A stretch of 64,000 nt of DNA, from positions 1 through 64,000 of the forward strand of contig JAUSFL010000008.1 in NCBI GenBank assembly GCA_030649735.1. Reading direction: 5' to 3'. The notes under the pieces were generated by a model that was not told where the DNA came from, searched no databases, and saw only the letters and a list, made by a program, of their open reading frames with translations. Below are positions 6,293-48,063 of this stretch, piece by piece. The DNA is from Candidatus Iainarchaeum sp. (GTDB lineage Archaea > Iainarchaeota > Iainarchaeia > Iainarchaeales > UBA10191). Each line of letters opens with the position of its first letter. Within the stretch, counting starts at the first letter, position 1. A program made the position numbers and the translations under genes.

Positions 6293-6647
6293 GCTCAAGC
6301 ACAACTTATTTTTCTAAACAAACCTTAAAAATTACTTATTTTATTTTTAGGCTTCAGCGCTAGAAAGCACTGAAAGGAAATAAAGTATTTCTTAAAAAAA
6401 CAATTTCTTACATAAATAGAGTGCGACTACATAATCGCTATTTTCACCACCACTGACAAAACTTAATGTCTATATAATATCACAAACTATACATAAGTAA
6501 ACAAGTATTTTTCACACTCTTTTTGTTCAAAAAAGCACCTACAAGTGCGTTATGGTTAAGAAAAGCCCAATCCTTGCTCTTCAACCGAAAAGTATTTAAA
6601 CCCCTGAAGCGTTTTTTGATGTAGTTTTCCAAGCAGGATTGAGAAAG

Positions 6648-6788
6648 ATGATGACTGAAAGAAATTCAACAATTACCCCAAGATTTGAACTTTCCAGAAT
6701 GCTTGGAAAAGGGCTCAAATTACAGGACAATGTGCTTGCTTTCTCAAAAAAAGCAGGCCGGTCAACTAACATTCACCCCATTCAATAA
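6648..6788 (+). CDS. possible 46-aa small protein (MMTERNSTITPRFELSRMLGK...)
   Basis: Manual translation; BRE/TATA-like gaaaagtatttaaa at 6587-6600 and downstream hairpin. Confidence 0.35.
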   Translation: MMTERNSTITPRFELSRMLGKGLKLQDNVLAFSKKAGRSTNIHPIQ

Positions 6789-6800
6789 GAGAACAATTGA

Positions 6801-6835
6801 GCGCGGCATCCCAAATGCCGCGTTCTTCTTTTTTT
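6801..6835 (+). terminator. GC hairpin followed by a U-rich tract
   Basis: gcgcggcat-ccca-aatgccgcgt then tcttctttttt. Confidence 0.55.
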
Positions 6836-6897
6836 CGCGCTTTCAATTGCGAGCCAGTCTTTTTAACTCTTTTCAACAACTTTAATTGTTGGCTTTT

Positions 6898-7383
6898 ATG
6901 ATTGTTTTGATTACTGGAACTCCCGGAACTGGAAAATCCACTGTTGCAAAGGCATTGAAGGCAAGGCTTGGGCAAGGCTGGACAGTAATCAATGACCGCG
7001 AGTTTTGCAAAAAATTCAAGATTGGCTTTTTTGACAAGAAAGCGCAAGAGCTTGAAGTCCCGGTGAAAAAGCTTGAGGCTAAGCTAAAGCAAAAACTCAA
7101 AAAAGAAGGCAGCATAATCTTGGAAGGCCACTTGTTTTGCGAAACAAAAATTCCCGCAGACATTATAGTGCTTTTGCGCACCAGCCCAAAGCTTTTGGAA
7201 ACTCGCTTATTGGGAAAAGGCTATGGCCAGTTGAAGGTTTTGGATAATGTTTTTTGCGAAATGACTGATTACTGCAAAGCCAATGTTTTGAAAAATTTTG
7301 GCAAAAACAAGGTTTTGGAGTTGAATAATGATAAAGGCTTAAAAGAAATTACTGCCAAAATATTAAAGGAAATTAAAAATTGA
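6898..7383 (+). CDS. adenylate kinase, AK6/Fap7 family
   Basis: ITGTPGTGKST P-loop, ILEGH motif, LETRLLGKGY. Confidence 0.85.
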   Translation: MIVLITGTPGTGKSTVAKALKARLGQGWTVINDREFCKKFKIGFFDKKAQELEVPVKKLEAKLKQKLKKEGSIILEGHLFCETKIPADIIVLLRTSPKLLETRLLGKGYGQLKVLDNVFCEMTDYCKANVLKNFGKNKVLELNNDKGLKEITAKILKEIKN

Positions 7384-7390
7384 CCAAAGG

Positions 7391-8602
7391 TTGTTCTATT
7401 TGAAGTTCAAAATTCTTGCACTAATTGTTCTTTTGGCATTCTCTGGCTTTGCTTTGTCTGAAACTTTAAGCGAGGTTTCCTTAAAACAGGCAAACTTTCA
7501 AGGCCTGGTTGCTGAAGGCCAGGAAGTGCAGCAATGCGCCACTTATGCTTTCCTTAAAGAAGCAATCGCAGAGCAAAAAGGAGTCTTCATTGTTTTTTCA
7601 GCGCACGCCTTGTTTTCTCCAGCAAGCCAAGGCAATGCGAAAGTCAGTGTTTTCCTGAACAATTTTGAAACATTGGCTGAATTCAAGCCAGTTGATTTCC
7701 AGAATGGCTGGGCCAGAGTGGAAGTTCCAATCAATGGATTGCTTGAAAAAAATTCCTTGAAAGTCTGCGCGAAAACAACAAGCAGCATTACAAAAGTTGA
7801 AGTATTGGATGATTCAACAATCGGCTATTATAAAATGCCAAAATTCGAGCTTAAAAAAGCAGTTTCTGAAACCAGGCCGATAATTGGAAGAGAATTGGAA
7901 ATCACTTTGACTGCGACAAACATTGGAAGCGAGGCGGCAACTGCAAAAATCAGTTACTGGAACATTGAACTAAACATTGCGCAAATCACGCGCGGAGACT
8001 CTGAATTCAATGGAATAATCCAGCCAGGCCAAAGCGTTACAATGCGTTATTTTGTAAAGCCAAAGTATGCGGTCCAAATGGACTTGGCTTCAGCAATCCT
8101 TGAGTTTGACAATATTTTTGGGGAAAAGCAGACTGTTTATTCAAACAGGCCGACAATTTGGGTCCAAGAGCCAGAATTCAAGGTAAAGGCCTTTTACAGC
8201 ATTACAGAGCAAAAGGCATTCCAGCCAGGCCAAAGCACAACCTTGGTTTTGACTGCAAGGAATGAAGGCGTCAATGACTTGGAAAACATCAGCATTAAAG
8301 TCGTAAAGCCTGAAGGACTGATTGTTTCAAAAGACAGTTTTGAAAACATCAGCTTAAAGGCAGGCGCTTCAAAAACTTTTGAAATTTCAGCATCCAGCCT
8401 GGAAGAAGGCATTCTGCAAATTGGCTGCAGTGTGGAATATTCTGACTACAAGGTAGTGAACACAAAATGCGCCCCATTAAACATTGAGTTCGAAAAGCCA
8501 AAGCAAAACAACCTCTTGATTTTTGCAATAGTTCTTTTGATTGTTGGAGCGATAATTTATGCTTTCATTTACAGGCCTGAAAAGAAAAAAGCAGAAAAAT
8601 GA
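7391..8602 (+). CDS. surface protein with Ig-like (CARDB/BatD-like) domains and C-terminal TM anchor
   Basis: Signal peptide, ITLTATNIGSEAA and VLTARNEG repeats, terminal TM plus basic tail. Confidence 0.75.
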   Translation: MFYLKFKILALIVLLAFSGFALSETLSEVSLKQANFQGLVAEGQEVQQCATYAFLKEAIAEQKGVFIVFSAHALFSPASQGNAKVSVFLNNFETLAEFKPVDFQNGWARVEVPINGLLEKNSLKVCAKTTSSITKVEVLDDSTIGYYKMPKFELKKAVSETRPIIGRELEITLTATNIGSEAATAKISYWNIELNIAQITRGDSEFNGIIQPGQSVTMRYFVKPKYAVQMDLASAILEFDNIFGEKQTVYSNRPTIWVQEPEFKVKAFYSITEQKAFQPGQSTTLVLTARNEGVNDLENISIKVVKPEGLIVSKDSFENISLKAGASKTFEISASSLEEGILQIGCSVEYSDYKVVNTKCAPLNIEFEKPKQNNLLIFAIVLLIVGAIIYAFIYRPEKKKAEK

Positions 8603-8605
8603 TTT

Positions 8606-9739: not shown

Positions 9740-9842
9740 AAAAAATTAAGGAAGCGAATTGTTTAACAAAATGAGTTGTTTTGTCGACTGGAAATTTGGC
9801 CTCAAAGCGTTTATAAATTAGGAAAGCGTATTTTATTGAAAT

Positions 9843-16693: not shown

Positions 16694-17899
16694 ATGGGCA
16701 AGCCGTCAAGAAGACAGTCAAGAATTCAGAGAAACCAGGCAAAACAGGCAAAGCCAGGCATTGTTCGGCCAGGATTTTTCGCAAGGAACAAAAAAAAGGC
16801 GATTGTTTTTGGAACTGCCACTGCATTGGCTTTGGGGGGATTTGCGGGAGTCAAGGGAGTCAATGCATTAAGGTTTGCAAAATGGAAGCAAAACCAAAGC
16901 CTTACTGTAATGCTTGGAAGCCACCAGCATTCGACAGACGTCATTCCGTTGGCAAATGCCCTCGAAAAAGCAAGGCAGTCGGGAAGGCCTTTTGATTTTC
17001 TGGTTTTGGAAAACTCTGCAATAAGAGCTGGAGAAAGGAAAGAGAAGGAAAGAGTCTACAACAAGCACTGTGCCCAGGTAAGGCAAATGTTTGCTAGAGA
17101 ACTTGAGCAAGGCAACATTGCTCCAATCACAGAGTTCTTGAGGCAGAAAGGCGCTTTCAAGGGCAGTCCAGAACAAGTAAGCCATGGAAATGCATTGATA
17201 GCCTATGCAGCAAAGTATGGCTTGAGAATAAAGCTTGGGGAAGAATACTCGAGGCGCGAGTTTGAGAGAGCAGAAGCCCTCAGTGGCAAGCAAATGCAAT
17301 TGCTTGGAGAGAGCAAGGAAAACCTTCCAACAAGCGCTGTTTTGGAAAAGGCAAGGCAGGTCATAATTGCAGAGAAAAATTACCTGCGCTTGAGAAACCA
17401 GGCTTTGGCAAACATTACCTCTCGCGCTGCCGCAGAATTAAGGAAAGAAAATCCCGTGTTGAGAAGCCGTGAATTGAAAGGCGCAGTGCAGGCGGGCCTT
17501 GGGCATTTTGGCGTTGTTGAAGAAATCAAAAGAAAAGGCATTAAAGGAATGAAAGTTGACGTAATTGTCGACTTGTCCAAAGAGCGCTTTAAAAGAATTC
17601 CAGCAGGAACAAAGGGAGTTTTTTCAATTCCAGCAACAGACTTGCTTGCAGAATCAAGGGCCAAAGGCCAGAATGCAACTCCAGAACAAGTTGCATTGAC
17701 TTTTTTGATAGAGCCAATTTACAGGGGAGCAGTCAATGCTGGAGACTCAAAGCAGGCTGTCTGGATAGCACAGCAGGCTTTCAGGCAAACTCCGCAAAAT
17801 GCTTCAATGATTCTGTCACAGGTGCAAGGCCTTACGGGTCAGCCAAGGGTAATCAAAATTATGGAATTAATGACTGGGCAGAAAACAGTAATCCAGTAA
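16694..17899 (+). CDS. hypothetical protein: basic N-terminus, TM helix, globular domain
   Basis: 401-aa ORF. Confidence 0.8.
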   Translation: MGKPSRRQSRIQRNQAKQAKPGIVRPGFFARNKKKAIVFGTATALALGGFAGVKGVNALRFAKWKQNQSLTVMLGSHQHSTDVIPLANALEKARQSGRPFDFLVLENSAIRAGERKEKERVYNKHCAQVRQMFARELEQGNIAPITEFLRQKGAFKGSPEQVSHGNALIAYAAKYGLRIKLGEEYSRREFERAEALSGKQMQLLGESKENLPTSAVLEKARQVIIAEKNYLRLRNQALANITSRAAAELRKENPVLRSRELKGAVQAGLGHFGVVEEIKRKGIKGMKVDVIVDLSKERFKRIPAGTKGVFSIPATDLLAESRAKGQNATPEQVALTFLIEPIYRGAVNAGDSKQAVWIAQQAFRQTPQNASMILSQVQGLTGQPRVIKIMELMTGQKTVIQ

Positions 17900-17905
17900 G
17901 CAATT

Positions 17906-18415
17906 TCACTTTAGTTCCTTAAGCTTGCTTTCGAAAGGATTTGGCACTAAATCAGTATGGAATTTTTCTGAAACCTTGCCTGTTATTTTGTCAAGTTCAA
18001 ACCAGGCTTCTGTTAAATAGCTTAAGGCTTCAATCTTATACTTTAATGCCTCTTCCTTTATTGTCCAAAACTCTTCCTCTGGAATTTCCTTAATGCCTAA
18101 TTCTTTCTTTATTGAATTCACGAGCTTTTCAGAAACTTCGGCATTGCCAAAACCATTGCCCTTGCTTGTTGTTATTGAAGAATTTTCAGTGCTTTCATCA
18201 AAGCAGACAACCACTGAAGAGATTGATTTCTTTGCAAGCAATGGAATAAATTCGATTTTTTTCCTGAAAGAAACCACAACCCGCTTGTTGCCGCTTAAGA
18301 CCTTGACGCTGTCAAAAAATTCTGGCCTGAAGTCAGCCTCGTACTTTTTAACTGCCTCAACAGCCAGTTGGATTATTTGCTGCCTTTTCAACTTCAGCAA
18401 TTCAGAAACTTTCAT
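17906..18415 (-). CDS. hypothetical protein
   Basis: 169-aa ORF. Confidence 0.7.
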   Translation of the reverse strand: MKVSELLKLKRQQIIQLAVEAVKKYEADFRPEFFDSVKVLSGNKRVVVSFRKKIEFIPLLAKKSISSVVVCFDESTENSSITTSKGNGFGNAEVSEKLVNSIKKELGIKEIPEEEFWTIKEEALKYKIEALSYLTEAWFELDKITGKVSEKFHTDLVPNPFESKLKELK

Positions 18416-18514
18416 AATTCATGAAGAGAATTTTCAAAAATAAAAGGATTACTTCGACATAATTGATTGGGGGTTGTTGGTAAAGTTCTTTAATTCCTAA
18501 AACATTAATTTTGC

Positions 18515-19264
18515 ATGGGTTTAGATGGAATTTTCTCAAAAATAGCCAAATTCAAAAGAAAGGCATTTTTGCCAATAACTGCCCAGGGAGATTCAGGGCC
18601 CTTGGACTCTAAATTTTCGGGAATTCCATTCCTTGAAGAGGGAGAAAAATGGCCTGTTTGCCCAAACTGTAAAAAACCAATGCAGTTGTTCTTGCAGTTA
18701 AACCTGGATGAAGCGAAAAAACAAACAAAACAAGACTGTGGTTCTGGGCTTTTCCAATTGTTCTATTGCACTTCAGACACTGAACCGCGTTGTGACACAG
18801 TCTGCGATGGCAATGTTCCTGAAGGAACATGCGAGCTTGTAAGGGTAATAATTCCTAAAGGAAAACCGCAAAACATTGTAGTGCCTAAATTGGAGCCGAA
18901 CCAAATAAAACCAGTAAAAATCACTGGCTGGATGGAAGTTGAAGAATTTCCTTCAGGCACTGAAATTCAAGAACTTAACCTTGATGAAAAAATAGCAGAA
19001 GATTATGAGCTAATAGAGAAAATTGATGATGAAAATAACACAATCCAGCAAAAAGACAAGCTCGGCGGCTGGCCATTCTGGATACAATCCCCGTGGCTTT
19101 TAGAATGCAAAAAGTGCGGAAAGCCAATGCAATTATTCTTTCAATTGTGCTCGCAAGCAATTCCAGAAGCCAGCCTTGATTACTTCTTCTGCGATGGAAT
19201 CGGGTACATTTTCCAATGCCCGCAGCACAAGGAAGAAGTGGTTTTCTTTTATCAGGAAAGCTAA
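18515..19264 (+). CDS. DUF1963 / YwqG-like protein
   Basis: SKFSGIP..WPVCPNC..PMQLFLQLNL and KLGGWPFWIQ internal repeat. Confidence 0.82.
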   Translation: MGLDGIFSKIAKFKRKAFLPITAQGDSGPLDSKFSGIPFLEEGEKWPVCPNCKKPMQLFLQLNLDEAKKQTKQDCGSGLFQLFYCTSDTEPRCDTVCDGNVPEGTCELVRVIIPKGKPQNIVVPKLEPNQIKPVKITGWMEVEEFPSGTEIQELNLDEKIAEDYELIEKIDDENNTIQQKDKLGGWPFWIQSPWLLECKKCGKPMQLFFQLCSQAIPEASLDYFFCDGIGYIFQCPQHKEEVVFFYQES

Positions 19265-19309
19265 AAGCTCAAAACCCTTAAAAAATTGAAGCGCACAACA
19301 CAGAACTTG

Positions 19310-19371
19310 TACATAATCAAAATCCAACATTAAACAACTGGTTTACTAAAAAGATGGGAAGGAACAACTTC
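19310..19371 (+). repeat. dispersed intergenic repeat, copy 1
   Basis: First 40 nt are 36/40 identical to 25810-25849. Confidence 0.85.
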
Positions 19372-19390
19372 AAAATAGTGAAAATTGGTA

Positions 19391-20707
19391 TTAACTGAAG
19401 GCAGCCTTAATTTCAGGAATTTCCATCAAAATGGATTCTGCTATTTTGTTGTCAAGGAAAAAAGAATCGCCAGTTAGGAATGGCTCATTAAGCGGGAATG
19501 GCTTCACGGCATGGCCGCCCAAATTCAATAAAAAAGCCTGGTTGAAAACCACTCCTGTTTTGGAATATATTTGGCTTAAGTCGCTTAAATCGCCTTCAAA
19601 ACGCGAATGCGACCCGGTTTTTGTGGAATTCTGTAATTCAGTGAACAATTTGCTGGTTTTTTCAATGTCAAGCTGGAAAATTTTTGCTTTAGGGTTTTTC
19701 ATAACAAACTTGCGCAAGCTTGTGACTGATTTGTCAGGGGCTGAAGCAAGGAGTAATAAATTGTGCGGGAGTTGATCAATTACGTTTTTTCGCAATGCAT
19801 CATCCAATGGCAAAACAGCAAAAAACCCAGAAAGGTCTAGAATGCCTAAAAATGCAGATTTGGAGTCTTTGTTGAATACAAATGCAAATCTGTCAACAGC
19901 GCTTGAAATTTCAGGCTCTGGGCCTTTGAGATATTGGAGCGGCTCAAAAAGCTTCTCTAATTCCAAAAATTTAGGGTCTGTTTTTTTCATGCTGAAATTG
20001 TTTTTAGCCCCAAACCCATCAGAATGAATCTCAGTGTCTTTTCCACCTACCCAAACATTGAAATAACAAAAATCCCCGCAATTAGAATCTGGCCCAAAGT
20101 CAGCGGCTAAATCTTTCTTAATTGAAACTTTCTCTGCCGGAACTTGCTTTGCAATTTTAATTGCTTTCTCAAAAAGGTCTTCAATTGTCTTTTTGTCAAC
20201 AATAATTTGATTTTTGCTGTGGAAAATTCCAGCCCGATCAAGGGTGAATGCTTTTCTTGTATGCTCACATTCGCCTCTTCTTCTAGTGCCTTCGCTGAAA
20301 GAAATAAAATCTCCAGCGTTCCCGCGACTTTTCCTAAGCTCTTCAATGCTTAAAATTCCAGAATTCTCAAGAGCTTCAACAATCTTGAAGAATGAAGGAA
20401 CTGCCTTTCCTTCAGAAAGCAAAAAGTAGATATTTTGCTCTGAAAAACCCTCTAGAAAAATGCAGGCATAACTCATTTCTTTTAAAGTATTCTCGATTGG
20501 CTTTTCACTTGTTTTTGAAGACAATGCTATTTTTCCTAAATTTGAAAACAAGCTTTCAGACTGTTTTTTCTCAAGAATTCCGCAAGATGAAATCCCAAAA
20601 TAAGAAAGTCCGGCCCAGCTTTCTTGGTTTATTTCAAGCAAACTTTTTCTGTAAGCGCTAGAATTATCGCCAGCAACTCCAAATTGTGAATAAAAAACCA
20701 CTCTCAA
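19391..20707 (-). CDS. hypothetical protein
   Basis: 438-aa ORF, TTG start after a GGTG SD. Confidence 0.75.
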   Translation of the reverse strand: MRVVFYSQFGVAGDNSSAYRKSLLEINQESWAGLSYFGISSCGILEKKQSESLFSNLGKIALSSKTSEKPIENTLKEMSYACIFLEGFSEQNIYFLLSEGKAVPSFFKIVEALENSGILSIEELRKSRGNAGDFISFSEGTRRRGECEHTRKAFTLDRAGIFHSKNQIIVDKKTIEDLFEKAIKIAKQVPAEKVSIKKDLAADFGPDSNCGDFCYFNVWVGGKDTEIHSDGFGAKNNFSMKKTDPKFLELEKLFEPLQYLKGPEPEISSAVDRFAFVFNKDSKSAFLGILDLSGFFAVLPLDDALRKNVIDQLPHNLLLLASAPDKSVTSLRKFVMKNPKAKIFQLDIEKTSKLFTELQNSTKTGSHSRFEGDLSDLSQIYSKTGVVFNQAFLLNLGGHAVKPFPLNEPFLTGDSFFLDNKIAESILMEIPEIKAAFS

Positions 20708-20788
20708 GTTTCAGCACCTTAAACTACTTACTGAAAAGCAGGACTTTGGCATTAATATTTTTTTCTTTTCAAAAACCAATGCTTTTTT

Positions 20789-20995
20789 ATGCGAAAGAGC
20801 CATAACTTACAAATGAACAAAGCAGAAGTCAAGGCAGGGGATTCAAGGCAAGCCGCCTTTATTGCCCAAGTTGTTTTCAAGCAAACCCAGCAAAGCGCTT
20901 CAAGAATCATTGGCCAATTGCACGGCTTGACTGGCAAAGCAAGGGCAGTAAAAATGATGGAGTTAATGACTGGCCAAAAGACAGTAATTCAATAG
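20789..20995 (+). pseudogene. orphan copy of the C-terminal 55 aa of the 16694..17899 protein
   Basis: Colinear, 36/55 aa identical, identical end MELMTGQKTVIQ. Confidence 0.7.
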
Positions 20996-21001: not shown

Positions 21002-21583
21002 TCATTTTACTTTCAAATCATTCACTTTGTTGAACAATTCTTCCAAAAACTCGTGCACTGCCAAAAGCTTTTCGTCAATTGGAATTCTTGCATTGCTTTT
21101 TTCCGAAAGCCTTGCCTTAATTTTTAGCAATTCTTCTATTCTTTTAAGGTCTTGCCTAAAGCCGCTGGTTTTTTCGCCTTTCAAGTACAAAATGCCGCGA
21201 AGGATTTTCTTCAGGCTTTGAGGGATTGAATTGAACAATTCACGCTTTTCAAAAAACCCGGTATCCAAGAAAGCATGCCTGTACTGTATTAAAAACAGCA
21301 TTAGCTCGCGCTCTATTTCAAGCCTTAATTCTTTCTTGTCAAACTTGATTTTTTCAAGGCAGTTCTTGCCTGCCAAAAGCCTTGCTGTCAATGCAATCTG
21401 GAAAAGATAGTAAGGCATTGAATCAGTTGTTTTCTTTAGTTCATCCAAAGTCAAGATTGTCGTGAAAACTTTGGGATTGAATATTTTCTTGGCTTTCAAG
21501 GCATTTTTAAGCCTGAAGCTTTTCAGGACAATGAAATGCTTTTTTCTGAAAGTCCCGTATTCAAGAACGCATTCTGCATTCAC
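21002..21583 (-). CDS. degenerate nucleotidyltransferase-like protein, apparently 5'-truncated
   Basis: VLEYGT...FIVLK, ILTLDEL, ELRLEIEREL pattern; catalytic DxD absent. Confidence 0.5.
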   Translation of the reverse strand: MNAECVLEYGTFRKKHFIVLKSFRLKNALKAKKIFNPKVFTTILTLDELKKTTDSMPYYLFQIALTARLLAGKNCLEKIKFDKKELRLEIERELMLFLIQYRHAFLDTGFFEKRELFNSIPQSLKKILRGILYLKGEKTSGFRQDLKRIEELLKIKARLSEKSNARIPIDEKLLAVHEFLEELFNKVNDLKVK

Positions 21584-25757: not shown

Positions 25758-25809
25758 TTATGAATTGGGTAATATTTCTTTATAAAAGAAGTCCGCCAGA
25801 CTAAAATTA

Positions 25810-25872
25810 TACATAACCAAAATGCAACCTTAACCAACTGGTTTACTAAGAAAATAGGAAAGAACAAATTCA
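25810..25872 (+). repeat. dispersed intergenic repeat, copy 2
   Basis: Matches 19310-19371. Confidence 0.85.
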
Positions 25873-26018: not shown

Positions 26019-26046
26019 TTGAGGTATAATCATCATTATACCGAGT
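26019..26046. other. candidate dif-like Xer recombination site
   Basis: TTGAGGTATAA-TCATCA-TTATACCGAGT: 11-6-11 layout with inverted inner arms, intergenic. Confidence 0.55.
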
Positions 26047-26149: not shown

Positions 26150-26195
26150 AAAATGGCTTGAAAATGGCTTCGTAAGATGGCTTTGAAAGATGGCT
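26150..26195 (+). repeat. four short tandem repeats AARATGGCT
   Basis: Copies at 26150, 26161, 26174, 26187. Confidence 0.8.
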
Positions 26196-26258
26196 CTGTT
26201 ATGTAGTTGGTGTGGTTTTTGGGAAAGTTTTAAATTCCAAAAATGCCTGCTAAACTGC

Positions 26259-26618
26259 ATGCTCAAGCGCGCAGGAAACTGGCTCAAAACCCAAAAGCAC
26301 AAATTCAAGTCTTTGCGGGAAATTCAAAAACAAATTGGGCAAGTAAGAACTGAAAATGGAGTAGTAATTGGTCTGAAAGATGGTGGTTCAGTTCCGGCAG
26401 TAAAAATGCTCAACCTAGCAATTCATGCAAGTTATTTGCCAGCGAAAACGCGCAGGAACGAAATAATCAAATGGGTTAATCAAATTAAACTACATTTGAT
26501 TGCTTCAGAAGCATCAAAAATCCCTAGACCCCCATATCAAGAAAAAATGAGGGAAATTAATGCGTATGCGGAGCAGCTTGTTGCTGAATCTTTGCGGATG
26601 GCTGACTTGAAAAGTTAG
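26259..26618 (+). CDS. hypothetical protein
   Basis: Leaderless ATG about 30 nt after TATA ttttaaat (26228). Confidence 0.65.
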   Translation: MLKRAGNWLKTQKHKFKSLREIQKQIGQVRTENGVVIGLKDGGSVPAVKMLNLAIHASYLPAKTRRNEIIKWVNQIKLHLIASEASKIPRPPYQEKMREINAYAEQLVAESLRMADLKS

Positions 26619-26803
26619 GCACTACAAATTTGCGGAGCATTGTTTTGAAAGAAAATAATTAGGCACTACATTTTTTAAAACTTTAAAACCCAAAAAATTA
26701 AAGAAATGAGAGAGTTTATTGCTCCGCAAATTGAGTTATGTAGTTGTGTGGGGGTTGGGAAGAATTTTTATATTCGCAAAACTTAAATAATTAGGTTGTT
26801 TTT

Positions 26804-27163
26804 TTGGGAAAGCCAAGTTTAAACAGAAAGCGTTTTGAGCGTTTAGGAGTTAAAGTTTCCAAAGCTTCTAAAGTTAAGCACCCGCAAGTTTTTCCAGTGA
26901 AAATACTGCTTGAATCAAGGCTTGCCTTCATTGAAAAGATAGAGAAAGAAAAAGGGCTGCCAGAGGCATTAAGTGCCTGCAAGGGGCTTTTAGAATCTAT
27001 TTCCTTTAGGCGAATAAAACCGGGTGAAGATTTTTCATCACGAAAAAAAAAGCTTCCAAGATTGCCTTTCTCTCGCGAAGAGCTTCTTTTCATGCGTTTT
27101 AAACTAAAGCAAAAATTAACGCAATTGGAAAGAGCAAGCGGCTTAAAGGCCAGAAAGAGTTAG
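26804..27163 (+). CDS. basic hypothetical protein
   Basis: 119-aa ORF, TTG start, MGKPSLNRKRFER. Confidence 0.6.
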   Translation: MGKPSLNRKRFERLGVKVSKASKVKHPQVFPVKILLESRLAFIEKIEKEKGLPEALSACKGLLESISFRRIKPGEDFSSRKKKLPRLPFSREELLFMRFKLKQKLTQLERASGLKARKS

Positions 27164-27339
27164 GTACTACAATTTTTAAAGCCCGGAAAATTTGAGAAAC
27201 GAAAAAATATTGCTCCGCAAAAAAAGAGCAATTATGTATGTTGCTTGGCGTAAATTGTTAGCAATCTAAATCCCGCATTAAAGCAATGGTTTGTTTTGTT
27301 AATTGAAAATTCTTAAATTCTAGTATGATTTATTTAGTT

Positions 27340-27587
27340 GAGCCAGAAGCCAACTAGTGGACAGTTCGGTTGTCCTGGAAAGGATGTGACCATAAAAGCC
27401 TCTGTAAAGCATTCGGCTATAAATGCAATGACTGGACTATAACTCACTGCATGAAATCTGTGCTTTGTTAAGCGTTTTATGGCGCGTAGAAGATAACCTT
27501 AAAGTTTGAAGGCAGGTTAAGAACGACGCCTGAAAGCAACTTGAGGAACTTTCTACACCGAGTCCAGAAAATGTCGGTTTCTGGTTT
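27340..27587 (+). ncRNA. candidate structured RNA of unknown class with long-range pseudoknot
   Basis: ORF-free; promoter-like element at 27305-27318; terminal helix, nested helices and 7-bp CTGGACT/AGTCCAG complementarity. Confidence 0.65.
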
Positions 27588-27607
27588 TATACTTTAAAGG
27601 TCAAAGA

Positions 27608-27845: not shown

Positions 27846-28040
27846 TTGGATTTTATGCCTTTGATTGAGAGAAAAAGCCAAGACATGATTAATTGGGAAA
27901 GCTGGCAAAAGCACTTGAACAAGAAGTTTGGAGTCAAGGAAGACGAGTTTTTGGAAAAGGCCGAAGAGCCAAAAGAAGCAGAGACCGAAAGCCAGGAAGA
28001 AATTGTTTCCTTGGAGTTTTTGGAAAAGCCAGTTGAGTGA
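27846..28040 (+). CDS. small acidic protein
   Basis: Glu-rich ORF; stop overlaps the next start. Confidence 0.6.
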   Translation: MDFMPLIERKSQDMINWESWQKHLNKKFGVKEDEFLEKAEEPKEAETESQEEIVSLEFLEKPVE

Positions 28041-30088
28041 AGCAAGTGCCTGCAAAAGCAAGAAAAGCAAAGCCTAAAAAAGCAAGATTGCCATATCTTT
28101 CAATAGCTTTAATTTTATTGGCAGTGATTGTTTTGGCTGGATTGTTTTCATTTGATTTCCTGAAAAATTACAAAATCAAGGAATTTACAGCAGGCGACAA
28201 TTCTTTTTCTTTCAGCTATCCGGAATTCAAGGGCTGGGAAGTTTCCGGACCGCAAAGCCCTGAAGAGGTTGTTCCGGCAACTAATTGGACTTTTTTCCTT
28301 AACAATCCGACAAAAATCAATTTTGAGTTTGCTCCGCAATTCACGGTTTCAAAGCATGCTTTTACTGGCGGAGACTACAAGCATCCTTTTCCGTCAATTT
28401 CAAAAAGCCCTAATGGTTACTCGTTCAATATCGAGCCCTCAGACCCTAACAAAGTATTAGTTTACGGGAAAGATTACTCATATTACATTAATTCTGTAGA
28501 CTTCAACAAAATCACGTTTTATGCGCAAGATTTCTCATTAGCCATTGTCTTGTCTTCAGTTTCTGAAAAAGACGGTTTTTCAAGAAAGAAGTTTTTTGAA
28601 GAAATAATCAAGAGCTTCAAGGCTGGGGGAAATCAAGCGAATGGAAAATTGGTTTACTCTGATTCTGGTTTTGTTCCAATGAACTCTTCAGGTAGAACCA
28701 TGCCTGTCGAGAGTTTTGAAGGAATTATTGAATTATCTGATGATTTGGGAATTAGTTATTTTGCCTTGGTTCTTGACAAAAATTCTCCAAGCAATCTTGG
28801 CCCTGATGCTAATCCAACTGTTAATGAATGGAATAAACGCCTCGGATTGCGAGATTCAAGGCATAATTTGTTTTCTTCCAGTGACGAATTGCTGAAAAGC
28901 CTTGTTGGAAAGCGCGTGAAAATTGAAGGAATACTAAACGAGAGCAATATGGCTCCAGGCCGGTTTATTATTACAAAATCAATTTGGCTGGTTTCTGAAG
29001 GAAATTCCAGCCCTCAAGAGTTTGAAGTGCGCGCAAGCTTTTTGCAAGATTTGTATTATGGCCTTGAAATTGTCAGGCTTTCAGACAACAAGGTAATCCA
29101 AACCATCAGCGTGAGAAATGCCGTTGATTTGACAAAGCCCGGCGTTGTTGAGTTGATTGACTTGAACAATGACGGATTTAAGGACTTGCGGGTTATTGGC
29201 GGCTATGATGGGAAAAAGCCATTGTATAAAGTGTGGTATTTTGACACTAAAACCCAGTCTTTTGTTTGGCTAGAGCAAAAGCAAGACCCTGTCTTGAGAA
29301 TGCCAGTCCGCCCTAATGTTGTCTTGAACTTGTGGCATTTCACTTTCGATCCTGATGACAAAAACAGGTTTGGTTTTGAAGTCAGCATTGACGGCCAAAG
29401 AGTAGAAAGCCAGATGTTGGGAAATGACGACTCGCTAACCGCCTTTCTGATTTTGACTGAAGGAAAGCACAAGCTTTTGGCAGTTAGTTATTCTGGAGAC
29501 AGTAATTTTAACGGCGCTTTTGGAAGGGGAATTGCTTTCAAGAAAGAAATTGAAATAAATGTTCAAGAAGGAAAAATGAATTCTTTGGATTTTTTTTACG
29601 CTTCTGCCATAAAAGGCCAAATGGTAACGAAAACAATCAGCCGCCCGTATTTTGACTTTGTGCTTTCAAGCGACAGCCTTCCTTCGGATTCGCCAATTCC
29701 AATCAGGGGCGGGCATCAGCAAGGCCAGGAGGCTGTTTTGACTAAAACTTCTCCAAATTTTGTTCTCGAGCCTCCAGTCGGAAGCGATTATACTGCGGCT
29801 CCTGCAATGAAAGTTTTGGCTTTTTTTGACGGAAAAGATGCATTGGCTTCAAACTTTGCATTGACTCTTTCCAAAGGCCCCCATGTTTTAAAGGCTGAAG
29901 GAATTTACGTTGAATTCAATGAAACAGACTATTTTGAGGCTTTCTTTTCTCTTACAGATGAAGCAACTTACAATTACGTTTACTTGGATTTTATGCCTTT
30001 GAGAAGCACTAGTGAAGACTACCGCAAGGTTTTCGCAAGCTCTTTTTCTTTTAGGATTGCGCAGCAGCAGGCAAGGTTTTACCAGTAA
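28037..30088 (+). CDS. large membrane-anchored multi-domain surface protein
   Basis: N-terminal TM helix; DLNNDGFKDL Ca-binding/FG-GAP-like loop; beta-rich. Confidence 0.8.
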   Translation: MKQVPAKARKAKPKKARLPYLSIALILLAVIVLAGLFSFDFLKNYKIKEFTAGDNSFSFSYPEFKGWEVSGPQSPEEVVPATNWTFFLNNPTKINFEFAPQFTVSKHAFTGGDYKHPFPSISKSPNGYSFNIEPSDPNKVLVYGKDYSYYINSVDFNKITFYAQDFSLAIVLSSVSEKDGFSRKKFFEEIIKSFKAGGNQANGKLVYSDSGFVPMNSSGRTMPVESFEGIIELSDDLGISYFALVLDKNSPSNLGPDANPTVNEWNKRLGLRDSRHNLFSSSDELLKSLVGKRVKIEGILNESNMAPGRFIITKSIWLVSEGNSSPQEFEVRASFLQDLYYGLEIVRLSDNKVIQTISVRNAVDLTKPGVVELIDLNNDGFKDLRVIGGYDGKKPLYKVWYFDTKTQSFVWLEQKQDPVLRMPVRPNVVLNLWHFTFDPDDKNRFGFEVSIDGQRVESQMLGNDDSLTAFLILTEGKHKLLAVSYSGDSNFNGAFGRGIAFKKEIEINVQEGKMNSLDFFYASAIKGQMVTKTISRPYFDFVLSSDSLPSDSPIPIRGGHQQGQEAVLTKTSPNFVLEPPVGSDYTAAPAMKVLAFFDGKDALASNFALTLSKGPHVLKAEGIYVEFNETDYFEAFFSLTDEATYNYVYLDFMPLRSTSEDYRKVFASSFSFRIAQQQARFYQ

Positions 30089-31653: not shown

Positions 31654-31986
31654 TTGGAACTTGTTGCATTGCTTGAATTTCTTGCAGGAATCACGGGCTT
31701 TTTGATGTCTATTGCTTATTTTCCCCAGGCTTGGAAGATTTTTAATAACAAAAGTGCTGAGGATGTTTCAATAATTTCTTATGTAATTTTTGCTGTTGGC
31801 ACTTGGATTTGGCTTTTGTGGGGGTTTTTTTCTGGCTCTTTCACTGTGATTGTTGGCTTTGCTTTTGGGGCTTTAGGCTCAACTTTGGTTTTGGCTTTGA
31901 GCATTTATTACAGGTTTGTCAAGCCACCACGCCATAGAATTTGCGTTCCAAAAAAAACATTTGTAAAAAAGCCTGCAAAGCATTAA
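31654..31986 (+). CDS. SemiSWEET / PQ-loop transporter, second copy
   Basis: YFPQAWKIFNNKSAEDVS, IWLLWG. Confidence 0.85.
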   Translation: MELVALLEFLAGITGFLMSIAYFPQAWKIFNNKSAEDVSIISYVIFAVGTWIWLLWGFFSGSFTVIVGFAFGALGSTLVLALSIYYRFVKPPRHRICVPKKTFVKKPAKH

Positions 31987-32927: not shown

Positions 32928-33728
32928 TTATTCCCAAACCACGCTTGCGTATCCTACAACGCTTGTTTTGTCTTTTGTGGCGCGCGCTGAAGTGTAATAA
33001 TCGAGCAGTTTGGCCTTTAACTTTTTTTCTTTGGCAAATTCTAAAAGCGCTGTAATGCCAGCGTATCCGCAGATTGAAAGGTCGTTTTCAAACACCAGGT
33101 CAAAAAAACCCTCAACACGATTATGTAGTATTTGTTCTATTGCTTCGTCGTCTTTTTTTTTCGCGCTTTCTTCAGTTTCAAAATGCGTGAAATCGCTGCT
33201 TGCAATAAGCCCAAAGTCGAATTGCTTATGCAGTTCGGCAAGTGCCTGCCCGAGCTTTTTTAAGACTTGCAGGTCTTGCCCTGCAATGCAAACAACCACT
33301 AGTTTGAAGTCTGTCCCGAATTTTTTTTGCAGTAAAATCAGCTGCATTTCTGCAGAATGCTCTTGCAAATGCGCTTTTTCGTCAGATTTGGCTTCAGGCA
33401 CTAATTCAATCAGCCTTTCCGCAAGTTCTTTGTTGATTTCGTTCATTCCTTGAATTGTTTGCCATTCGCCGGCTGGATAGATGCTTATTTTCTCTCCAAG
33501 GCCTGTGTGATTTGGACAGAGAATTATGTAGTTGCTGCTTTTTCTTAGGCTGTTAATGCTTTTTCCTGCAATTTCTCCGCTGTAAATCAGGCCCGCGTGC
33601 GCTGAAATGCAAGCTATTGCTTTTCCTTCTGTTTCTGGCTTTGGAATGTTTTTTGCCAGCTGCTTTTCCAGCAATGCTTTAGAATTAGGGTAAAACAGGC
33701 CTTGCACTGCAGGCTGTCTAATTGCCAT
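32928..33728 (-). CDS. MEMO1 family (AmmeMemoRadiSam B)
   Basis: IRQPAVQGLFYP, HAGLIYSG, EHSAE, SSDFTH, VVGY. Confidence 0.93.
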   Translation of the reverse strand: MAIRQPAVQGLFYPNSKALLEKQLAKNIPKPETEGKAIACISAHAGLIYSGEIAGKSINSLRKSSNYIILCPNHTGLGEKISIYPAGEWQTIQGMNEINKELAERLIELVPEAKSDEKAHLQEHSAEMQLILLQKKFGTDFKLVVVCIAGQDLQVLKKLGQALAELHKQFDFGLIASSDFTHFETEESAKKKDDEAIEQILHNRVEGFFDLVFENDLSICGYAGITALLEFAKEKKLKAKLLDYYTSARATKDKTSVVGYASVVWE

Positions 33729-44221: not shown

Positions 44222-44225
44222 TCAC

Positions 44226-44912: not shown

Positions 44913-45442
44913 TATTTATCGCCTTTGCTTGTTATGAATATTCCGTCTTGGAAAACTCTTCTGTCCTTGTCTTTTAAGCGTGTCAATTGCTCAATGTTTG
45001 CCGCTGTCTGCCCGACTTCTTCCTTGCTTGTTCCTTTCACTGTAATGTCTTTTCCCTTGATTTCAACAGTTGTTTTTCCCACGATTTTTGCGGCCCTTGC
45101 TTTTTTGCTTCCTAAAAAATTCATTATTTCAACTGTGTTTTCTTTTTTTACGGCTGTTAGTGGAAAGTGCGCGTAAACTATTGCGAGCTTGTAAACGTAT
45201 TCTTTCTGGCTTCCTTCAATCATGTTGTTCAAGTGCGCTTCAATGGAGTTCATCAATTTTTTCTCTTTTTTTGAGTCTTTTTCAGCGCTGATTTTGATTT
45301 TGCTTCCTTCGGCTTTGAAGCTGATTCCCAGTGCCCTGAACTCTTTTGACACTTCGCCTTTTGGGCCTTTTACTGTGACCTTGTTTCCCTGAATGTGGGC
45401 TTGGGTTCCTTGAGGCAATTCAATTATTGATTCCATAAACAT
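44912..45442 (-). CDS. rpl6: 50S ribosomal protein uL6
   Basis: YAHFP, NFLG, DRRVFQDGI. Confidence 0.97.
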   Translation of the reverse strand: MFMESIIELPQGTQAHIQGNKVTVKGPKGEVSKEFRALGISFKAEGSKIKISAEKDSKKEKKLMNSIEAHLNNMIEGSQKEYVYKLAIVYAHFPLTAVKKENTVEIMNFLGSKKARAAKIVGKTTVEIKGKDITVKGTSKEEVGQTAANIEQLTRLKDKDRRVFQDGIFITSKGDK

Positions 45443-45460
45443 GCACTATTTTTTCTTTTT

Positions 45461-45856
45461 TCAGTAGACAAAGGCAAGTAGCCTTCCTCCGGTGTTTTGC
45501 TTTTTTGCTTCCCTGTGCGTTATTACTCCTTTTGGGGTTGTGACTATCAGGATTCCAATGTCCCTTGAAGGCAGGTATCTTTTCTCGAATTTTTCGAACT
45601 CTTCCTTTTTGACTGCGTAGCGTGGCTTTATTGCCTTGCATTCGTTGATTTTTCCTTCAAGCATTACTTTGACTTGCGCGTGGTTGTTTTGGTCTTTTGC
45701 TGGCTCAAATCCTTTAATGTAGCCTTGGTCTTTCATTACTTTTAAGACTGCATTGAGCAGTTTGCTGGCTGGCTTGAGCGTGCATTCTTTCTTTGCGGTC
45801 TTTTCCTGATTTTTCATGTTTATTAGCGCGTCTGCTAATGGATCTGACATTGTCAT
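45461..45856 (-). CDS. rps8: 30S ribosomal protein uS8
   Basis: [21 protein letters not shown]. Confidence 0.97.
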
Positions 45857-45865
45857 TTTTTCACC

Positions 45866-46024
45866 TTAACTGTATTTTTTGAACCCCAATTGCTCTGCAA
45901 CGTCCTTGAAGCAACGCCTGCAAAGGTTAATTCCGTACTTGTGAATCATGCCCTTGTTGTTGTGGCAGATTTTGCAGTAAATGTGCTTTTTTGTCCTTTT
46001 TTTCTTTGGTCCTGTATTATTCAT
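45866..46024 (-). CDS. rps14: 30S ribosomal protein uS14 (absent from the ORF track)
   Basis: Manual translation MNNTGPKKKRTKKHIYCKICHNNKGMIHKYGINLCRRCFKDVAEQLGFKKYS. Confidence 0.95.
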   Translation of the reverse strand: MNNTGPKKKRTKKHIYCKICHNNKGMIHKYGINLCRRCFKDVAEQLGFKKYS

Positions 46025-46533
46025 GCTACTTCAACCCCGAAAGTTTGCCTTATGAATTCCATGGCTTCCTCTTTTTTCACAGCGTGCTTTGAGATTTTTT
46101 TTGTCTTGAACATTCTGCGTTTAATCCTGTATCCTGGCTTTTCCAAAGTGACTAGGACGTCAAATCCTTTCATTCCTAATTTTGGATCGTACTTTGCGCC
46201 TGGCAAGTCAATGTATTCCTTGATTCCAAAGCCAAAGTTGCCTAGCGCGTCAAAGCTTGCTGCCTTGAGCTTTTTTTCCTTTGCCGCGAATGCTGTTTTC
46301 AAGAATTCCAACGCCTTTTTTCCGCGGATTGTGACTTTCACTCCGATTGGAAGCCCTTCCCTGATTCCCCAAGTCGGCTGCTTTATTTTGCAGATTGTCT
46401 GGATTGGCTTTTTGCCAGTGATTCTTTTGAGTATTTCCTCTGCTTTTTTGAGCTCGTCGCCGGCCTGGCCTACTCCAATGTTGAGGGTGATTTTTTCAAC
46501 CCTGACGTTTTGCATTCTATTGGTCAACTTCAT
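46021..46533 (-). CDS. rpl5: 50S ribosomal protein uL5
   Basis: KITLNIGVG, GNFGFGI.EYID. Confidence 0.97.
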   Translation of the reverse strand: MKLTNRMQNVRVEKITLNIGVGQAGDELKKAEEILKRITGKKPIQTICKIKQPTWGIREGLPIGVKVTIRGKKALEFLKTAFAAKEKKLKAASFDALGNFGFGIKEYIDLPGAKYDPKLGMKGFDVLVTLEKPGYRIKRRMFKTKKISKHAVKKEEAMEFIRQTFGVEVA

Positions 46534-47255
46534 TCACCTTTGAAAACTTCAATTTCCGCTTTTTCCTTTCCAATGACCAGGATGTTTTTTTCAGTTGTCT
46601 GGAATTCTTCGCTTCCGGAATTCAACTGCAAAATGCGCTCTTTTGTCAATGTGCCCGGAATTATTTCCGCGACTTTTGCTGTTTTTCCAACGTGCTTTCC
46701 TGCAATTAGCAGCACTGTGCTTCCTTCCTGTAGTTTGAGCTCTTGAATTATCTTGTTTTCTGGCACTTGCGTCTTGACGCTGTCGCCTGGCTTCAAGTCT
46801 GTTTTTGCAAGAATGAAGTTTCTTCCGTCACTGCTTGAAAGCATTATTTTTCCGCCTTTCATTGCCTTTTTTGACATGATTCTTGCAATCTTGAAGTTTT
46901 TTCCTGCGGGAAGCTCGCGAATTACAAGCCTTCCATTAGTGTCTATAAGAACCCTGAATGATTTTTTCAATTCTTTAATCTCAATAATGTCAAACAGCCC
47001 GATTGGAAAATTTCTTTCTTTCCTTACAATTCCGTCAACTTCAATTTGGCTGTTGTTGAGCAGGAATTTGATTTCTTTCGTGTTTTTGACAATTTTCATT
47101 ATGTCCCTTAGCGCAAACCCTAAAGGGACGCTTAATTTTTTCGCGTGAGTTCCCGGCCTGTAGGCTATTGTCCAGTTTTTTGTCTTGCGCGGCATGAAGT
47201 GCGATTTTGGGGCGCTTAGTGTCTTTTGCTGTTTTGAACCTTGCTTTTTTGCCAT
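46530..47255 (-). CDS. rps4e: 30S ribosomal protein eS4
   Basis: PGTH, VDGIVR, PIGLFD, AGKHVG. Confidence 0.95.
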   Translation of the reverse strand: MAKKQGSKQQKTLSAPKSHFMPRKTKNWTIAYRPGTHAKKLSVPLGFALRDIMKIVKNTKEIKFLLNNSQIEVDGIVRKERNFPIGLFDIIEIKELKKSFRVLIDTNGRLVIRELPAGKNFKIARIMSKKAMKGGKIMLSSSDGRNFILAKTDLKPGDSVKTQVPENKIIQELKLQEGSTVLLIAGKHVGKTAKVAEIIPGTLTKERILQLNSGSEEFQTTEKNILVIGKEKAEIEVFKGE

Positions 47256-47259
47256 TTTC

Positions 47260-47631
47260 TCACTTTCCCTTCTTTGCAGGCTTTGGTTTTTTCTGCTTCA
47301 GTCTTTTGTCGTCATTCCTGTCAATTTCTGTAACTATCAAGTTTGAAGCGTTGATTCCCAATGGCTTTTCTGTGCCGTCGCTTTTTTTTACTTTGATTCC
47401 GTCAATGAAGACCCTGAACTTGTGCCTGTCAATGCCCGTGACTTTTCCATTGGCTTTGGTGTGCTCTCCGCGCATTACTTTGACAGTGTCGCCTTTTTTT
47501 ACTGTGATGTTTCTTAAGCCGAGCTCTTTTCGCAATTCCTTGCTCAAGTGCGCCTTGACGAATTTTTTCCTGTCTTTCAGGCTTGCTGAAAGCATTTCTT
47601 TCCTTTGCTTTTTAGGCTTTTTTGACACCAT
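47260..47631 (-). CDS. rpl24: 50S ribosomal protein uL24
   Basis: LSKELR, KGDTVKVMRG. Confidence 0.96.
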   Translation of the reverse strand: MVSKKPKKQRKEMLSASLKDRKKFVKAHLSKELRKELGLRNITVKKGDTVKVMRGEHTKANGKVTGIDRHKFRVFIDGIKVKKSDGTEKPLGINASNLIVTEIDRNDDKRLKQKKPKPAKKGK

Positions 47632-47664
47632 CTTAATTCACCAATATATCAACTTATATAATAT

Positions 47665-48063
47665 TCAAATTACTGCAGTTGCGAGCCCAGCTACTTTTGC
47701 CCAGCGTTCTCCAACTTCTTTTGCGACTACTCCTTTCACTTCGCTTGCTTTTGGAAGGCCTTTTTCATCCACTAGGACCACTGCGTTGTCTTCGAATTTA
47801 ATGCGTGTTCCGTCAGGCCTTTTGTACTCTTTCTTGACTCGGACTACAACTGCCCTTTCGATTTTTTTCTTGATTTCCGGCTTTCCCTTGCTTACCACGA
47901 CATTCACCATGTCTGCAATTCCTGCAGCCGGCTTTTGCCTGTATTTTGTATGGTGCCCGAAAACAGTGATTATGTAGACCTCTTTTGCTCCGCTGTTGTC
48001 AGTGCAAACGCAGGTTGTGTTCTGGTTCAGTGTTTTTGTTATTGAAGCGCTGATTGGTTTCAT
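47665..48063 (-). CDS. rpl14: 50S ribosomal protein uL14
   Basis: DNSGAK, FEDNAVV. Confidence 0.97.
   Translation of the reverse strand: MKPISASITKTLNQNTTCVCTDNSGAKEVYIITVFGHHTKYRQKPAAGIADMVNVVVSKGKPEIKKKIERAVVVRVKKEYKRPDGTRIKFEDNAVVLVDEKGLPKASEVKGVVAKEVGERWAKVAGLATAVI

Follow-up and report, generated by a model that had tools for sequence, protein, structure and literature searches.

The heptamer TACATAA switches strand at a dif-like site in a 64,000-nt stretch of archaeal DNA (Candidatus Iainarchaeum sp., contig JAUSFL010000008.1, positions 1 to 64,000; hereafter the window), with the copies on both sides pointing towards the site. The window lies on contig C30 of a 1.28-Mb genome in 51 contigs (92.7% complete; here G000) from a DPANN archaeon of the Iainarchaeia/Diapherotrites. 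The word keeps the same arrangement in distant relatives, where it flanks related sites between quite different genes, and TACATAA therefore looks like a real direction signal. On balance, we think it probable from the comparison of sequences that the replication-terminus side of the chromosome is marked in this DPANN order by TACATAA, in the extended form TT[A/C]TACATAA[C/T], as a word to which a protein binds in an orientation-specific way.

Within the window, TACATAA occurs 14 times against 2.68 expected copies, a number reached by none of 100 dinucleotide shuffles. Its strands split perfectly, with six copies on the + strand at or below position 25816 and eight on the − strand at or above 26199. 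The original prediction had listed 13 copies by eye and proposed that they flip at the dif-like site; all 13 positions and strands are right, the full count adds a 14th copy (31779, −) and the flip is without exception. The two variants mentioned beside them, TTCGACATAA (18453) and TTCAACATAA (25366), are present as well. It is equally true that most copies are intergenic and that they cluster near the site: 9/14 lie outside open reading frames (ORFs), or 10 if the copy at 26199 is taken to sit in the 5′ end of an over-extended ORF, and 13/14 fall inside 6.4–33.5 kb. All intergenic calls rest on a crude gene set of longest ORFs. From the intergenic density elsewhere in the genome, 1.03 intergenic copies are predicted for the window (Poisson P=1.4e-6); because TACATAA is the best of the 3189 words tested for intergenic excess, the corrected P is roughly 0.005–0.01.

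In what follows, a copy is called inward if TACATAA reads on the + strand left of the site or on the − strand right of it, and outward in the reverse case. For the composition-matched control, made of the 104 permutations of A4T2C1, 58% of the occurrences in the window are inward (845 vs 603 outward), compared with 14/14 for TACATAA, and the product of the local-skew probabilities for the observed strands is 0.0015. Base skew accounts for only part of the polarity. The extended word TTMTACATAAY, allowing up to one mismatch, has nine matches in the window (1.86 expected), all of them inward (six + on the left, three − on the right). Of the 1806 7-mers that reach 10 copies in the window, with four or more on each strand, 16 show a perfect strand flip, and the window evidence taken alone makes the case for TACATAA only suggestive. 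Over the full contig C30, the count is 20 inward and 3 outward, or 12 and 1 for intergenic copies.

The site at which the word flips is an 11-6-11 imperfect inverted repeat with a TATAA-N6-TTATA core, in which 7/11 arm positions pair, including all seven inner ones. It is unique in the genome and lies inside a 430-bp intergenic region; the site region is not AT-rich. The same core is found in the dif of Thermococcus kodakarensis, TTTTGATATAA TGTACC TTATATGACAA, for which the criterion TAA(N)6-8TTA is given (PMC11840125). An order-wide pattern, GCGGTATAA-N6-TTATACCGC with GC flanks and at most two mismatches, retrieves related sites in 27/195 other genomes of the order, compared with 5/196 for a reversed control. 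The site is single-copy in 26 of these 27 genomes, with two sites in the remaining one; it is present in 7/7 genomes of genus g28, and one genome of a different family holds the identical 20-mer. The two arms co-vary between genomes (GCAGTATAA/TTATACTGC, GCCGTATAA/TTATACGGC, GCGGCATAA/TTATGCCGC), in the forms GCAG../..CTGC, GCCG../..CGGC and GGCATAA/TTATGCC, as is expected where one protein binds both arms of a site. A XerA-like gene is encoded on another contig of G000 (C49:3751-4725), with a Phage_integrase match of 158 bits and SAM-like N-terminal domains, and the palindrome at 26019-26046 reads as a chromosomal dif, the predicted target of XerA.

The site was not found in the three nearest relatives (G001–G003, 81–91% complete), and among the genes next to it across genomes none is conserved beyond close relatives. 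Two broader searches were set aside. A first palindrome search (at most one mismatch, no GC flanks, 40 relatives) gave 7 matches against 5 control genomes and was uninformative, since only the GC-flanked pattern parted signal from control; a loose scan of G000 for 11-6-11 repeats returned 48 candidates with no discrimination. One of the related palindromes (G176:C8:173-196, locus L070) comes directly after what seems to be a tRNA gene with an intron, and no TACATAA lies within 300 bp of it; the same genome has a second, weaker dif-like site.

Polarity was scored at 25 loci from other genomes, 2 of the 27 having been dropped as the scoring pattern missed their site; genomes that are kin are not independent in these locus counts. 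Within 300 bp of the site, 50 copies of TACATAA are inward and a single one is outward, compared with 343 and 185 for the matched words. Inward copies stand on both sides of the site in 20/25 loci and on one side in two, and the gap between the inner copy and the site is 22–237 bp with a median of 111. A homologous inner-left copy exists in 21/25 other genomes, and an inner-right copy likewise in 21/25; the flanks converge on TT[A/C]TACATAA[C/T] over the 25 loci. An unbiased k-mer count at seven loci places TACATAA first, in 9/14 flanks, at least two of the flanks being shortened by a contig end. Because the genes flanking the site are non-homologous between genomes, and because at least five loci have an inner-left copy that looks towards a neighbour's 3′ end while still aiming at the site, the direction of the word is kept relative to the site and not to genes. 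The proposal of a polar DNA signal that flips at the dif-like site is thus repeated in independent genomes.

The position of the site on the chromosome was read in two closed genomes of the order, G005 (839,632 bp) and G019 (1,241,428 bp), all others analysed being fragmented metagenome bins. The G019 site (964,003) is no more than about 40 kb from the GC-skew peak (1000-kb bin), and gene strands converge on 840–1040 kb. In G005, the candidate site GGTCGGCATAA TATCTC TTATGCCGAAA at 319,967, the only GC-containing 9-of-11 candidate, lies 20–40 kb from the cumulative GC-skew peak (340-kb bin), with orc1 (817.6 kb) at the opposite skew turning point, about 147 degrees from the site. About 450 kb separate this site from the best XerA match of G005 (C1:767,905-768,765), which is reported to contain two TAA codons in frame.

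The word is polar over much longer distances in these two genomes. The cumulative orientation skew of intergenic TACATAA in G019 peaks at 963,876, which is the copy adjoining the site, and within 300 kb the intergenic copies are 27 inward and 6 outward (matched words 52.5% inward), fourth of 1719 words, while all copies together give 63 and 24. Within 100 kb of the G005 site, the counts are 12 and 2 for intergenic copies and 30 and 12 for all copies, with matched words at 52% and 46%, respectively. Density is about one copy per 5–15 kb and increases near dif. The genome-wide count that the original prediction had called for divides: the word is ordinary in G000 as a whole but polar around the site in G019 and G005. 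Its caution that in-gene copies may only reflect codon usage is needed only in part: the genic copies of the three genomes are 62 inward and 30 outward (about 67% inward, by subtraction) compared with a background of 46–59%. Some other words are more polar than TACATAA among intergenic DNA in the 300 kb around the G019 site (TGGGTTG 15 inward and 0 outward, GGGTTGA 12 and 0, GCAAAGC 18 and 1); TGGGTTG, taken up as a rival polar word, has no polarity in the G000 window.

Away from the site, the word gathers at genes linked to cell division. Direct arrays of TACATAA stand upstream of ftsZ1, with four copies in G000, three in G001, one each in G002 and G003 and two in G019, and they all read TACATAA towards ftsZ though the upstream neighbour differs. 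A second array, between FttA and an AAA_18 gene (6409–6496 in G000), has three copies in the same-genus G001 and four in G019, which belongs to a different family, and the intervening genes differ. Copies also lie between xerA and a PRC-barrel gene in both G000 and G019, the PRC-barrel gene being 76% identical between them; PRC-barrel proteins are reported to be archaeal division proteins (bioRxiv 10.1101/2023.03.28.534520, 10.1101/2023.03.28.534543). An inverted pair, TTATGTA-N9-TACATAA, is placed 11–39 nt before the start of the gene next to the PRC-barrel gene, and the same pair lies 486–689 bp from the dif-like site in 13/25 loci; inverted pairs stand about 22–25 nt upstream of the TATA boxes of small genes. 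In G019, 53 of the 140 copies fall in the 9.7% of the genome that is intergenic, an enrichment of about 4-fold. The intergenic enrichment and the conservation of arrays at orthologous positions suggest that the word is bound by a protein.

One TACATAA on each side aims at the single XerA/dif-like site, and further copies, up to 100–300 kb away, hold the same direction on each replichore. The word itself, its polarity and conservation, and the dif-like character and terminus position of the site are shown by the sequences; that a protein reads the word, and to what effect, we infer as follows. A DNA-binding factor may read TACATAA directionally and either steer a DNA-tracking machine (a translocase, a loop extruder of the structural maintenance of chromosomes (SMC) type or the replisome) to dif, or stop that machine there. 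The two copies of dif would thereby meet XerA at division, the job done in bacteria by FtsK and its orienting polar sequences (KOPS) or by Ter/Tus. The same factor could sit as a regulator in the tandem arrays and inverted pairs at the ftsZ1, PRC-barrel and xerA promoters, and binding there would tie terminus processing to the division programme.

Several results weigh against this reading. Polarity weakens with distance and is uneven: the far half of G019 is about even in TACATAA direction, and G005 has 6 inward and 4 outward copies within 20 kb and 61 and 52 within 300 kb. G005 is without an inner right copy, and 3/25 loci have no TACATAA within 300 bp of the site. The contigs of G000 are not orientable, and its polarity was read on C30 only; genome-wide, the word has 85 copies (44+/41−) against 54–65 expected and ranks 3563 of 13408, and a dense, genome-wide word of the KOPS kind was rejected for G000 on these figures. 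The orc1 gene of G019 is only 123 kb from the site, so that the terminus of this genome is called from skew and gene orientation alone. Many copies precede a TATA box by 22–25 nt, a placing shared with the sites of ordinary activators and repressors. Transcription factors, and not KOPS or Ter, are the usual occupants of tandem arrays and inverted pairs. Finally, profile searches of G000 found no match to the FtsK-gamma domain (PF09397) or to Tus (PF05472), and the one match to RTP (PF02334), 22 bits and sub-threshold, is an ordinary PadR-family regulator beside a MacB/FtsX ABC transporter. The likeness to KOPS and Ter sites that the original prediction saw holds for the orientation switch and the opposed groups of sites, and of the mechanisms it offered, a fork trap and translocase orientation are both still candidates.

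As a first alternative, which we judge unlikely but still deserving of attention, TACATAA may be an ordinary transcription-factor site of a division regulon, polar through promoters co-oriented with replication, with the copies at dif regulating the adjoining genes. Much of the promoter evidence fits, including the arrays 100–200 nt ahead of ftsZ1 and of the small ORF after FttA, the copies between xerA and the gene for a PRC-barrel protein, a class reported to take part in archaeal division, and the inverted pairs about 22–25 nt upstream of small-gene TATA boxes in 13/25 loci. In the window, TTATGTA stands 22 nt upstream of a TATA element at 25810, 26199 and 26736; the copy at 25810, read on the − strand, precedes the TATA box of a leaderless gene (25757 to 25470), and that at 26199 precedes GGGAAAGTTTTAAAT, which resembles a TATA box with its transcription factor B recognition element. 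A regulon of this kind does not account for the direction of the word, which is 50 to 1 despite non-homologous flanking genes, remains aimed at the site in the at least five loci where the inner-left copy points at a neighbour's 3′ end, and extends to genic copies (about 67% inward). Nor is there an orientation rule with respect to gene starts: in G019, 32 copies read towards a start and 21 towards an end, and direction depends on the locus, TACATAA reading towards ftsZ but TTATGTA towards the PRC-barrel gene. A fixed, gene-oriented promoter element was rejected, direction relative to starts being inconsistent in both the window and G019.

It is improbable, in our estimate, that the copies are weak variant TATA boxes (TTATACATAA) driving short convergent transcripts into dif, by which the site would be kept open or turned into a boundary, topological or for SMC. 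The A/T-rich word is a quasi-palindrome (TTAT-AC-ATAA) preceded 5–7 nt upstream by A-rich positions, the roughly 150–200 nt from the inner copies of G000 to the site hold no ORF, and a duplicate of the 60 nt that follow 25810 is found at 19310; the dif of T. kodakarensis, moreover, lies between convergent genes and forms a domain boundary of the chromosome (PMC11840125). The clear promoters of G000 look different, however (GAAAG+TTTTAAAT and AAAAG+TATTTAAA), an array spacing of 18–22 bp makes no sense for promoters, and the polarity of genic copies is left unexplained.

Archaeal origins carry inverted origin recognition box (ORB) elements around a central region, and the palindrome region could be read as a replication origin with TACATAA as ORB-like Orc1/Cdc6 sites inverted around it, an idea to which we give very little credence. 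Genes do diverge locally from 26.0 kb (− genes at 19.4–25.8 kb, + genes at 26.2–32.9 kb), direct ATGGCT repeats adjoin the site, and orc1 of G019 is near. Yet in both closed genomes the site is close to the cumulative GC-skew maximum and not the minimum, with orc1 of G005 at the opposite turn, and the gene strands of G019 converge on the region at the 100-kb scale. The core is of Xer type, the region is not AT-rich and the orc1 genes of G000 lie on contigs other than C30.

Equally doubtful is that the copies are XerA half-sites, either single arms resembling the XerD half-sites (XDS) of bacteria or, as the original prediction had suggested, scars of Xer-mediated integrations. The word ends in ATAA as the inner arm of dif does, clusters of copies occur around dif and around xerA, and XerD half-sites in the terminus of B. 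subtilis unload SMC (cited in PMC11840125). Only 4/7 positions match the arm, however (GGTATAA vs TACATAA), and the extended word TT[AC]TACATAA[CT] is unlike GCnGTATAA. The arms vary together between genomes (GGTATAA, AGTATAA, CGTATAA, GGCATAA) while the flanking word stays TACATAA, which disfavours scars in particular.

Chance combined with post-hoc selection and local A/T skew has next to no probability left: the chosen word is the top locally enriched 7-mer of about 8000, its excess over the genome density (4.24 per 64 kb; P about 1e-4, an estimate) is roughly at the best-of-8000 level, and both the perfect flips of 16/1806 words and the 58% inward rate of matched words lend this some weight, but it is refuted, since the word, fixed beforehand, repeats its pattern independently in 25 other genomes (50 inward, 1 outward) and in two closed genomes, to which conserved arrays at orthologous sites are added.

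Sub-threshold matches to PF01580 in G000 are limited to a HerA/VirB4/TraG-like ATPase (contig C3) and a T2SSE ATPase. The former, like the small winged-helix proteins encoded near the site, is a candidate reader of TACATAA. A gene trio is formed by xerA, the PRC-barrel gene and a gene for a protein of 198–213 aa (the third gene at C49:2503-3144 (−) in G000 and at 979,498-980,109 in G019). This protein, with 441 homologues found in Iainarchaeota only, is a candidate reader or division factor. Its AlphaFold2 model (predicted local distance difference test score 87) has a ferredoxin-like N-terminal domain and a helical bundle. It has no Pfam match, a PDB profile search gave E-values of at least 0.058, Foldseek returned no match at E 0.001 or better and the best VIA-align hits (Z up to 7.1) are generic ferredoxin-like and helical folds; none of these comparisons gave it a DNA-binding identity.

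Among known systems, KOPS (GGGNAGGG) and the SpoIIIE recognition sequences (SRS) resemble TACATAA as short, non-palindromic words that switch at dif and aim at dif on both replichores. For KOPS these properties are described by Cortez 2010 (PMC2958812), where archaea are generally without FtsK. TACATAA differs from KOPS in its A/T-rich, unrelated sequence, its 4-fold intergenic enrichment, its tandem arrays and inverted pairs at promoters, its lack of genome-wide over-representation in G000 and a polarity that fades beyond 100–300 kb, and the FtsK-gamma domain was not found in G000. With Ter/Tus of E. coli and Ter/RTP of B. subtilis, it has in common two opposed groups of polar sites that bracket the terminus and dif, but TACATAA is far shorter than the 23-bp Ter, has many more copies and is not accompanied by a Tus in G000, where the sole RTP-like match is an ordinary PadR. 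We know of no fork trap in archaea. The accessory sequences of cer and psi bind ArgR, PepA and ArcA. Like XDS, they are protein-binding DNA by a Xer core that controls recombination or SMC traffic, and their binders are also transcription factors; accessory sequences are, however, one-sided with fixed phasing, and XDS are similar to the dif arm, a likeness not seen in TACATAA, which stays the same when the arms change.

The archaeal short polarized sequences (ASPS) GTTG, GTTC and TGGT of Thermococcales and others (PMC2958812) also have a cumulative skew that reaches its peak close to the predicted dif or at it. ASPS are 4-mers seen as a genome-wide statistical skew without fixed copies, whereas TACATAA is a 7–11-mer with a conserved copy on each side of dif (22–237 bp) and gene-specific arrays. 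At the dif boundary of T. kodakarensis, TrmBL2 is a roadblock for Smc-ScpAB (Yamaura et al. 2025, PMC11840125), and there the core is similar and the DNA around dif, not dif/XerA itself, has an extra role in chromosome organisation. That boundary depends on a filament-forming nucleoid protein and the properties of AT-rich DNA, not on a defined oriented word, and no inward-facing pair of motifs is described in the available part of the paper. Literature searches on TACATAA/TTATGTA in archaea and on KOPS in archaea yielded, among the records listed, no paper describing the word. Among KOPS, ASPS, Ter and the TrmBL2 boundary, as the texts covered present them, none is a defined 7–11-bp word of which inward copies are fixed on the flanks of an archaeal dif.

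The individual copies and neighbouring elements are listed below.

Table 1. Copies of TACATAA, the dif-like site and adjacent elements in the window.
Feature	Position	Strand	Context
Three direct TACATAA copies (6409, 6428, 6490)	6409..6496	+	Between FttA (4400-6292) and 46-codon ORF/AAA_18 gene
Conserved 46-codon ORF, C-terminus LAFxKKAGR..NIHPIQ	6648..6788	+	tblastx, G000 vs G001
TACATAA within repeat D1 (19288-19372)	19310..19316	+	D1 is 79% identical to the left flank of the dif-like site, 25788-25872
Intergenic TACATAA	21642..21648	+	59 nt upstream of start of − strand ORF 21002-21583
Inner left copy (TTATACATAAC)	25810..25816	+	202 nt left of the 28-bp site, aimed at it
dif-like site, TTGAGGTATAA TCATCA TTATACCGAGT	26019..26046	.	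Perfect core palindrome 26023-26042
Four direct ATGGCT repeats, period 11-13 bp	26153..26195	+	Between site and inner right copy
Inner right copy	26199..26205	−	152 nt right of the site, aimed at it
TACATAA copy	26736..26742	−	22 nt upstream of TATA-like TTTTTATAT of ORF 26804-27163
Copy in AGCAA...TTGCT loop	27232..27238	−	Behind ORF 26804-27163
Copy in AGAGTT...AACTCT loop	30101..30107	−	13 nt past ORF 28037-30088, then T-run
In-gene copy	31779..31785	−	PQ-loop gene 31654-31986, antisense
Two in-gene copies (33121, 33524)	33121..33530	−	Memo-like gene 32928-33728, sense strand
In-gene copy	47970..47976	−	Ribosomal protein L14 gene 47665-48063 (Pfam-supported, − strand), sense strand

The Pfam matches of the window are archaeal (NAC, proteasome, FttA, ribosomal proteins L19e/L32e/L34e, RpoN, SUI1 and RNase P p29). 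The leftmost array sits about 95–105 nt upstream of a conserved TATA element, caaccgaaaagtatttaaac; the 46-codon ORF that follows has a conserved promoter, a conserved (terminator) hairpin behind it and no Pfam family, and the element at 6648-6788 could be a small protein or an RNA. The copy at 47970 is scored antisense in the longest-ORF set, in which an overlapping + ORF had been kept. The hairpins reported around the copies at 27232 and 30101 are present, although their folding (z = 0.18 and 0.03) does not exceed that of shuffled sequence, and the dif-like palindrome folds at z=-2.3, as expected for any palindrome. Words of the form ATGGC occur near the site in several other genomes too.

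Gene duplication was rejected as the origin of the copies, tblastn of eight local proteins having matched only the proteins themselves, and the sole duplicated stretch found is the 85-nt repeat D1. The direct repeat (19288-19372 and 25788-25872, 79%) takes in the inner-left TACATAA, and its two copies enclose 6.5 kb with accessory genes, among them one for immunity of the Imm5-like type; on the contig of a related population homology stops exactly at 25787; the pair may mark an insertion or duplication beside dif. The window is strain-variable from 12 to 33 kb, with no synteny in the same-genus G001 and 17722-20926 skipped in a related population, and it carries immunity-type and nuclease genes there (Imm5-like, DUF1963, a Holliday-junction-resolvase-like nuclease and a phage metallopeptidase). 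Contigs of two related groundwater populations show strain variation at 17.7–20.9 kb and right of 25787; a joint from 26676 to 27202 in these contigs rests on 21 letters and is too weak for use.

A probable unannotated structured RNA lies at about 27330–27600. Conservation there covers 27360-27568 (76% in G001, 69% in G003) and does not extend into the flanks, and 27357-27424 is matched by high-depth contigs from other populations; the candidate has no Rfam match. Rfam and tRNA scans of the window as a whole returned nothing at the gathering threshold, with a weak chance match to PhrS (E=0.46) at 25.7–28.1 kb. A further repeat family, (GAG)TTAGGCACTAC, contains the 10-mer TAGGCACTAC, by far the most over-represented of G000 with 50 copies against 0.39 expected. 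The family is found in the window at 26616, 26660 and 27161 (+) and at 18887 (−), and elsewhere in G000, for example at C44 43–63 kb, C23 6–24 kb, C49 1.7–4.7 kb and C45 38.4–39.4 kb. Eighteen copies of the 10-mer lie within long ORFs (at least 100 codons), always in the LGTT frame of unrelated proteins, and in six copies its TAG is the stop of an ORF, as in xerA and in the two small ORFs that lie to the right of the dif-like palindrome. Some copies are arranged as inverted pairs; the word is repeated in the same-genus G001 too and has ACTACA in common with cAACTACATAA.

To our knowledge, what has been described so far at an archaeal dif is limited to statistical 4-mer skews (ASPS) and the TrmBL2/SMC boundary of one species. 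The question addressed here is how archaea without FtsK pair dif, end replication and time the resolution of dimers. A defined 7–11-bp word makes the question of dif pairing directly testable and can be used as bait for the reader protein. In fragmented DPANN genomes it can also help to predict where dif and the terminus lie, and in one closed genome it has pointed out a dif-like site, at the GC-skew peak, which the palindrome search had missed. We put forward, tentatively and as something short of probable, that with TACATAA a polarity signal of an archaeal chromosome terminus is for the first time defined by its sequence. It would be a counterpart of KOPS or of a Ter fork trap that works independently of FtsK, and its reader would both bracket the XerA/dif site and occupy the arrays at the ftsZ1, PRC-barrel (CdpB-like) and xerA promoters. 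If true, this would mean that dimer resolution or termination is coupled both physically and transcriptionally to FtsZ-based division in DPANN archaea.

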